Shown one piece after another: positions 6,427-6,822 of a stretch of 10,356 nucleotides of DNA (the stretch's first letter is position 1; each line of letters opens with the position of its first letter). The notes below the pieces were generated by a model, which saw only the letters and a list, made by a program, of their open reading frames with translations, ran no database searches and had not been told where the DNA came from. The stretch is taken from NCBI RefSeq assembly GCF_003334385.1, contig NZ_QOWN01000069.1; one strand, 5' to 3'. The position numbers were made by a program, and so were the translations under genes. Source of the DNA: Escherichia coli (GTDB taxonomy: Bacteria; Pseudomonadota; Gammaproteobacteria; Enterobacterales; Enterobacteriaceae).

Positions 6427-6822
6427 ATGACGAAAGATGAACTGATTGCCCGTCTTCAGGTGCTGGGTGAGCAACTGAACCGTGATGTCAGCCTGACGGG
6501 GACGAAAGAAGAACTGGCACTCCGTGTGGCAGAGCTGGAAGAGGAGCTTGATGACACGGATGACGCTGCCGGTCAGGACACATCTGTCAGCCCGGAAAAT
6601 GCGCTGACCGGACATGAAAATGAGGTTGTATCAGCGCAGCCGGATACCGTGACTGATACGGCTGATCTGGTCACGGTTGTGGCACTGGTGACGCTGCATA
6701 CTGATGCAATTCACGCCACGCGGGATGAGGCTGTGGCATTTGTGCTGCCGGGAACGGCGTTCCGTGTCTCTGCCGGTGTGGCAGCTGAAATGACAGAGCG
6801 CGGCCTGGCCAGAATGCAATAA
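6427..6822 (+). CDS. FI: DNA-packaging / head assembly protein gpFI (131 aa here)
   Basis: ATG at 6427 is preceded by GGAGG (6417-6421) and gives MTKDELIARLQVLGEQLNRDVSLTGTKEELALRVAELEEELDD... ending ...AAEMTERGLARMQ, as in lambda gpFI. The ORF-track start at 6388 lies inside the hairpin and is rejected. Confidence 0.9.
   Translation: MTKDELIARLQVLGEQLNRDVSLTGTKEELALRVAELEEELDDTDDAAGQDTSVSPENALTGHENEVVSAQPDTVTDTADLVTVVALVTLHTDAIHATRDEAVAFVLPGTAFRVSAGVAAEMTERGLARMQ

Follow-up and report, generated by a model that had tools for sequence, protein, structure and literature searches.

The one-codon-shorter FI gene of a lambda-like Escherichia coli prophage is an ordinary natural length variant

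The gene FI of bacteriophage lambda codes for 132 amino acids, and a gene in the corresponding position of an E. coli draft genome appeared to be one codon shorter. Is this difference real, where in the protein does it lie, and does it set the locus apart from its relatives? The earlier note on this DNA had held that the window (the whole stretch analysed, 10,356 nt; all features are given on its plus strand) belongs to a close lambda relative, such as a lambdoid prophage, rather than to the reference phage. It had proposed an alignment to NC_001416 with per-gene identities and a search of enterobacterial prophages, and both were performed. In BLASTN, window positions 1-10356 matched lambda NC_001416 positions 776-11134 in one piece with 97.9% identity. 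Over 10,359 aligned columns the mismatches number 214 and the only gap is one of 3 nt, so the window is not the reference sequence. The genes lie on one strand in the order A-W-B-C-D-E-FI-FII-Z-U-V-G-T-H, which is collinear with lambda according to the list of open reading frames and NC_001416. They were matched one-to-one to lambda genes, A being represented by its 3' part, H by its 5' part and C by C/Nu3. All 14 are in frame and full length, and besides FI (indel) and FII (stop change) they have the lambda length. The per-gene nucleotide identities, obtained by global alignment of the window with NC_001416, were 98.2% for A, 96.6% for W, 98.6% for B, 98.3% for C, 99.1% for D, 95.9% for E, 92.5% for FI, 96.1% for FII, 99.1% for Z, 99.8% for U, 96.1% for V, 99.3% for G, 100% for T and 99.8% for the part of H. 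FI is therefore the gene of the window that diverges most from lambda.

The search showed that chromosomal E. coli prophages match the window best, those of strains SI-NP020 and C8 reaching 99.0% over its whole length. The top phage record, phage 2H10, reaches 98.4%, ahead of lambda itself. The note had favoured a close lambda relative, and we conclude that the window comes from an E. coli draft genome, in which it forms the head and tail genes of a lambda-like prophage, and not from laboratory lambda. The ICTV places phages in one species when their whole genomes share at least 95% nucleotide identity. The 97.9% identity to Lambdavirus lambda concerns a structural module of only 10.4 kb, and phage 1H12, which is equally close, is classed in the genus Jouyvirus.

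FI, the gene of the DNA packaging chaperone gpFI, occupies positions 6427 to 6822 (131 codons and a stop) and is collinear with lambda FI at 7202-7600 (132 aa), after which lambda FII follows at 7612-7965. The NCBI annotation of the contig to which the window is identical (QOWN01000069.1, GCA_003334385.1) gives the same limits, 6427-6822, with 131 aa and Pfam PF14000. The possibility that the two genes are in fact equally long, the lambda coordinates behind the note being wrong, was ruled out: these coordinates agree exactly with NC_001416, and both alignment and translation give 131 versus 132 aa. The gap is seen directly in the global alignment. It corresponds to lambda 7430-7432 (CTG, Leu77) and sits between bases 6654 and 6655 of the window; upstream of it the offset to lambda coordinates is 775, and downstream 778. 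A change of 3 nt in an otherwise constant offset between E and FII had been the basis for proposing a single in-frame 3-nt difference within FI, and this is indeed the sole gap in the alignment, the remaining differences being mismatches. At positions 6652 to 6657 the window reads ACT GAT (Thr76-Asp77), where lambda reads ATT CTG GAT (Ile76-Leu77-Asp78). The local protein sequences are DTV-TDTAD and DTVILDTSE, respectively. The most economical reading is the loss of the Leu77 codon together with a change of ATT to ACT (I76T). No short repeats that would point to a slippage mechanism were found near the indel.

Compared with lambda gpFI (NP_040588.1, PF14000, 2LSM), the window protein is likewise encoded between E and FII, with an unchanged start context, and gives the same matches to the family profile and to the 2LSM sequence. 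The two proteins hardly differ in the first 40 and the last 50 residues. That of the window lacks one residue, Leu77, and has I76T at the junction. Besides the absent leucine there are 16 amino-acid substitutions, 10 of which lie in residues 41-80. The protein identity amounts to 87-88%, and the number of nucleotide substitutions in the gene is about 27-29.

As the window corresponds to a whole contig (10,356 bp) from a draft assembly, we considered whether the missing codon could be a sequencing or assembly error. This was rejected as extremely improbable. Over 7,410 bp including FI, the independent Logan assembly ERR4578729 agrees with the window at 100% identity, and an in-frame loss of 3 nt accompanied by 27 substitutions does not resemble the signature of an error. 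Moreover, complete E. coli chromosomes and phage isolates that were sequenced independently also carry FI of 396 nt; it is annotated in phages 1H12 and PhiR29_1 and in the prophages of SI-NP020, E2865 and 2013C-3342.

The frequency of the shorter form was counted directly in several collections. The 90%-identity protein cluster that holds the window FI has 3,210 members and a 131-aa representative, and the largest 132-aa FI cluster among the matches listed has 667. Lambdoid IMG/VR contigs were retrieved by a 34-mer at the FII/Z junction, which is unrelated to FI length; the 71 of them with a complete FI comprised 44 with 131 aa, 25 with 132 aa and 2 with 128 aa. Among complete E. coli genomes, an evenly spaced sample from 3,226 FI-matching records gave 59 full-length matches, with FI of 396 nt in 35 and of 399 nt in 24. 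Since the 131-aa form is the majority in these samples, the 132 aa of reference lambda is the minority natural state. The one-codon-shorter FI is thus an ordinary and already known natural polymorphism, with nothing new in it.

The closest relatives carry the same form. The FI protein WP_000158868.1 of the prophages of E2865, RM9322 and 2013C-3342, as well as FI of 1H12 and PhiR29_1, also has 131 aa and a Thr-Asp junction at the indel site. The E2865 gene is 99.7% identical to that of the window, with one mismatch in 396 nt.

To see where FI varies, 118 FI cluster representatives of 126-133 aa were aligned. Their length varies recurrently at two sites, both in the middle segment of the protein. 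One is the one-codon site at residue 76, which 66 of the 118 representatives lack. The other comprises three codons of the acidic stretch (lambda residues 45-47, window positions ~6559-6567); 54 of the 118 lack them, which yields the 128- and 129-aa forms, and here the window FI has the long state. Combined, the two indels generate length classes of 132, 131, 129 and 128 aa, and for annotators all four lengths are normal. The states at residues 76/77 among relatives are T-, I-, IL (lambda), IQ, IH and TQ. The mean column entropy was 0.33 in residues 41-80 and 0.13 in each of the segments 1-40 and 81-132. The earlier expectation that the central acidic and linker part of FI is the variable region was hence essentially correct, the linker as a whole being the variable part. 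The indel that separates the window from lambda, however, lies outside the acidic run (residues ~37-51), at lambda residues 76-77, which is the distal end of the linker, immediately ahead of the folded domain that binds the head.

The assignment of the gene to the gpFI family is clear from its profile match to PHROG 92 'DNA packaging chaperone FI' (E 5.6e-52, residues 1-131) and from its E - FI - FII position in a head module of the lambda type. NCBIfam has no model for gpFI. The protein reportedly has a helical domain at its N-terminus and a domain at its C-terminus that binds the head. The domain limits used here combine this description with the construct of 2LSM, the only solved gpFI structure, which covers lambda residues 72-132. 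Residues 72-131 of the window FI align to residues 1-61 of 2LSM chain A (E 2.9e-27), which at the level of sequence indicates homology to the head-binding domain. The lone gap in this alignment is the indel site, at the fifth construct position, so the indel comes four to five residues after the start of the construct. An AlphaFold2 model of FI built from an alignment of 23 sequences had a mean pLDDT of 46.4 and a pTM of 0.24, too poor to place a disorder boundary or to compare folds.

PMC7889075, citing Popovic et al. 2012, describes gpFI as a non-structural factor for efficient packaging of lambda DNA and states that its C-terminal domain binds the major head protein gpE. According to the same source, gpFI presumably aids the DNA-bound terminase in engaging the prohead via gpE. 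Judging from the 87-88% protein identity, the window gpFI would be expected to stimulate the terminase-prohead encounter and the packaging of DNA and to bind gpE as in lambda.

The pattern of substitutions was observed directly as well. For FI versus lambda, dN/dS (Nei-Gojobori) was 0.63 overall, and 0.41, 1.20 and 0.38 for residues 1-40, 41-80 and 81-132, respectively, all values resting on as few as 29 substitutions. The other genes of the window gave 0 to 0.65. Together with the distribution of divergence, this pattern fits an FI linker that is weakly constrained between two constrained domains. With high confidence we regard the FI codon difference as neutral variation in linker length, spread by recombination among lambdoid prophages. 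The missing codon lies in the linker between the helical N-terminal domain and the gpE-binding C-terminal domain, a segment under little constraint, and we infer that its loss is functionally neutral. The shortened gpFI would then act as its lambda counterpart does, as a non-structural chaperone by which the DNA-bound terminase engages the prohead. The difference reflects standing allelic variation reshuffled by recombination, and is neither special to the window nor an error. The FI length result raises no new biological question.

The high overall dN/dS of FI might also be read as decay, with FI accumulating both the indel and its divergence under relaxed selection, as an unused gene of a defective prophage. 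The adjoining FII lacks the lambda stop codon, and some carriers of the FI-FII haplotype are clearly degraded by IS insertions, which would agree with such a reading. However, each of the 14 genes of the window keeps its full length and its frame. In FI, dN/dS stays at ~0.4 in the N- and C-terminal domains with the excess limited to the linker, and viable phage isolates share both the linker variability and the indel. Furthermore, one carrier of the same FI/FII allele, the prophage of 2013C-3342 at about 2.599-2.623 Mb of NZ_CP027766.1, has an uninterrupted module from Nu1 to J. Decay is, on this evidence, very unlikely. Pseudogenisation of FI itself was rejected, because the frame is intact and the domains are constrained. 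The idea that the 396-nt FI is limited to degraded prophages was likewise contradicted by its presence in the phage isolates 1H12 and PhiR29_1.

Among STEC prophages with the FI and FII alleles of this group, two are visibly damaged. In E2865, an IS66 family element lies within the C protease gene and K contains an internal stop. In RM9322, an IS3 family element is found in FII and IS1203 in H, and a truncated head module lies beside tRNA-Arg.

Neutral linker variation was also weighed against adaptation, that is, against a linker whose length and sequence are matched to the adjoining E allele through co-adaptation of gpFI and gpE. The gene of the major capsid protein, E (positions 5360 to 6385, 341 aa), differs from lambda by 14 amino-acid changes, of which 8 lie in residues 261-334. 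Divergence from lambda peaks in one contiguous block (window ~6000-6750) made up of FI and the 3' part of E, and the C-terminal domain of gpFI binds gpE (PMC7889075). On the other hand, adjacent genes are co-inherited, so that linkage and recombination blocks would by themselves make them diverge together. The indel, moreover, is in the linker, outside the binding domain. In addition, there is a patch of E at 6193-6307 in which the window differs from E2865, SI-NP020 and 1H12 despite near-identical FI. This shows that E and FI alleles are shuffled separately, and we consider co-adaptation very unlikely.

The E patch (codons ~278-316) carries 17-18 clustered substitutions, at the same sites, relative to lambda, E2865, SI-NP020 and 1H12. 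Its amino-acid changes versus lambda are Q278H, Q294L, R295S, A302P, V309K and T311S, and the same allele was found exactly in 9 other retrieved loci. The patch is thus a recombined mosaic segment of the major capsid gene.

Lambdoid genomes are mosaic, and the rest of the window agrees with this. The differences from lambda are spread unevenly; any 250 nt contain between 0 and 22 of them, and they peak at ~6000-6750 and 8250-9000. SI-NP020 is nearly identical to the window over positions 1-2000 and 4500-6000, and E2865 is closest over FI-FII-Z. This change of the closest relative from segment to segment, together with the patchy divergence, points to mosaic recombination among lambdoid prophages. 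The second peak was also observed as a block of raised divergence in the 3' half of V (8251-9000); V has 29 differences from lambda, nearly all synonymous, and a dN/dS of 0.06. SI-NP020 and E2865 are likewise divergent over 8251-9000, which points to another mosaic segment.

The gene next to FI differs from lambda in another way. FII, the head closure or head-tail joining gene, extends from position 6834 to 7208 and codes for 124 aa. A changed FII stop had been reported before, and the alignment shows it plainly: window positions 7185-7187 read TGG, where lambda has TGA. The 7 extra codons (WKGDVWP) carry the end of FII to 7208, overlapping the start of Z at 7199. The protein belongs to the NCBIfam equivalog NF049848 tail_join_FII (66.3 bits against a cutoff of 25) and matches PHROG 82 (E 1.3e-53). 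Its atypical length, 124 versus 117 aa, results from the stop-codon change. E2865 and 2013C-3342 also have this 375-nt gene, with the product WP_000752961.1, and this exact protein is present on at least 1,000 contigs. An exact 61-mer spanning the TGG junction occurs in 197 complete-genome records of E. coli, and most carriers among the matches listed belong to O26, O111 and O103. The stop-loss form of FII is therefore a known, annotated allele that is widespread in E. coli chromosomes.

In the STEC prophages, the FI protein WP_000158868.1 is linked to the 124-aa FII WP_000752961.1, which is also the FII allele of the window. Phages 1H12 and PhiR29_1 have kept the 117-aa FII, unlike the window. 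The TGG form was found in none of the 84 matching phage records, and its FII/Z 34-mer in no IMG/VR contig versus 81 contigs for the TGA control. In the lambda virion, the C-terminal loop of gpFII (residues 108-117) touches the O-loop of the tail terminator gpU (PMC10721106), which places the FII extension at this interface. Hence one may ask whether FI (131 aa) and the stop-loss FII (124 aa) make up a head-completion haplotype of their own that is restricted to prophages in chromosomes, and whose extension either disables head-tail joining or creates a new, compatible FII-U interface. We find this improbable. If joining were disabled, the lineage would be domesticated or defective. Even if the haplotype were distinct in this sense, the FI codon difference itself would still be neutral.

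Finally, the sequence around the FI start was inspected. The motif GGAGGAG at 6417-6423, read from the sequence 3 nt 5' of the FI ATG, resembles a Shine-Dalgarno element and is a putative ribosome-binding site of FI. A promoter scan of 6200-7300 found none, and an Rfam scan of the full window gave no family at threshold. In the spacer between the E stop and the ribosome-binding site, a G+C-rich 7-bp hairpin, ATGGCCCTTCGGGGCCAT, followed by a T-rich stretch, TTTCTCTCT, occupies positions 6388-6405 and is terminator-like. It is the only such hairpin in 6200-7300, a count no higher than in shuffled sequences. The hairpin contains an in-frame ATG, which gives rise to a spurious upstream-extended reading frame (6388-6822, 144 aa); some entries of 163 aa in databases suggest similar miscalled starts.

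The particular FI of the window is rare. No 100% match to the gene was found among complete E. coli genomes, and the exact protein (RCQ56688.1 and others) is recorded on only about 4-6 contigs. Unlike its 131-aa relatives, the window has the rare substitution L95I (nt 6709), which lies in the folded C-terminal domain and is absent from all other aligned FI.
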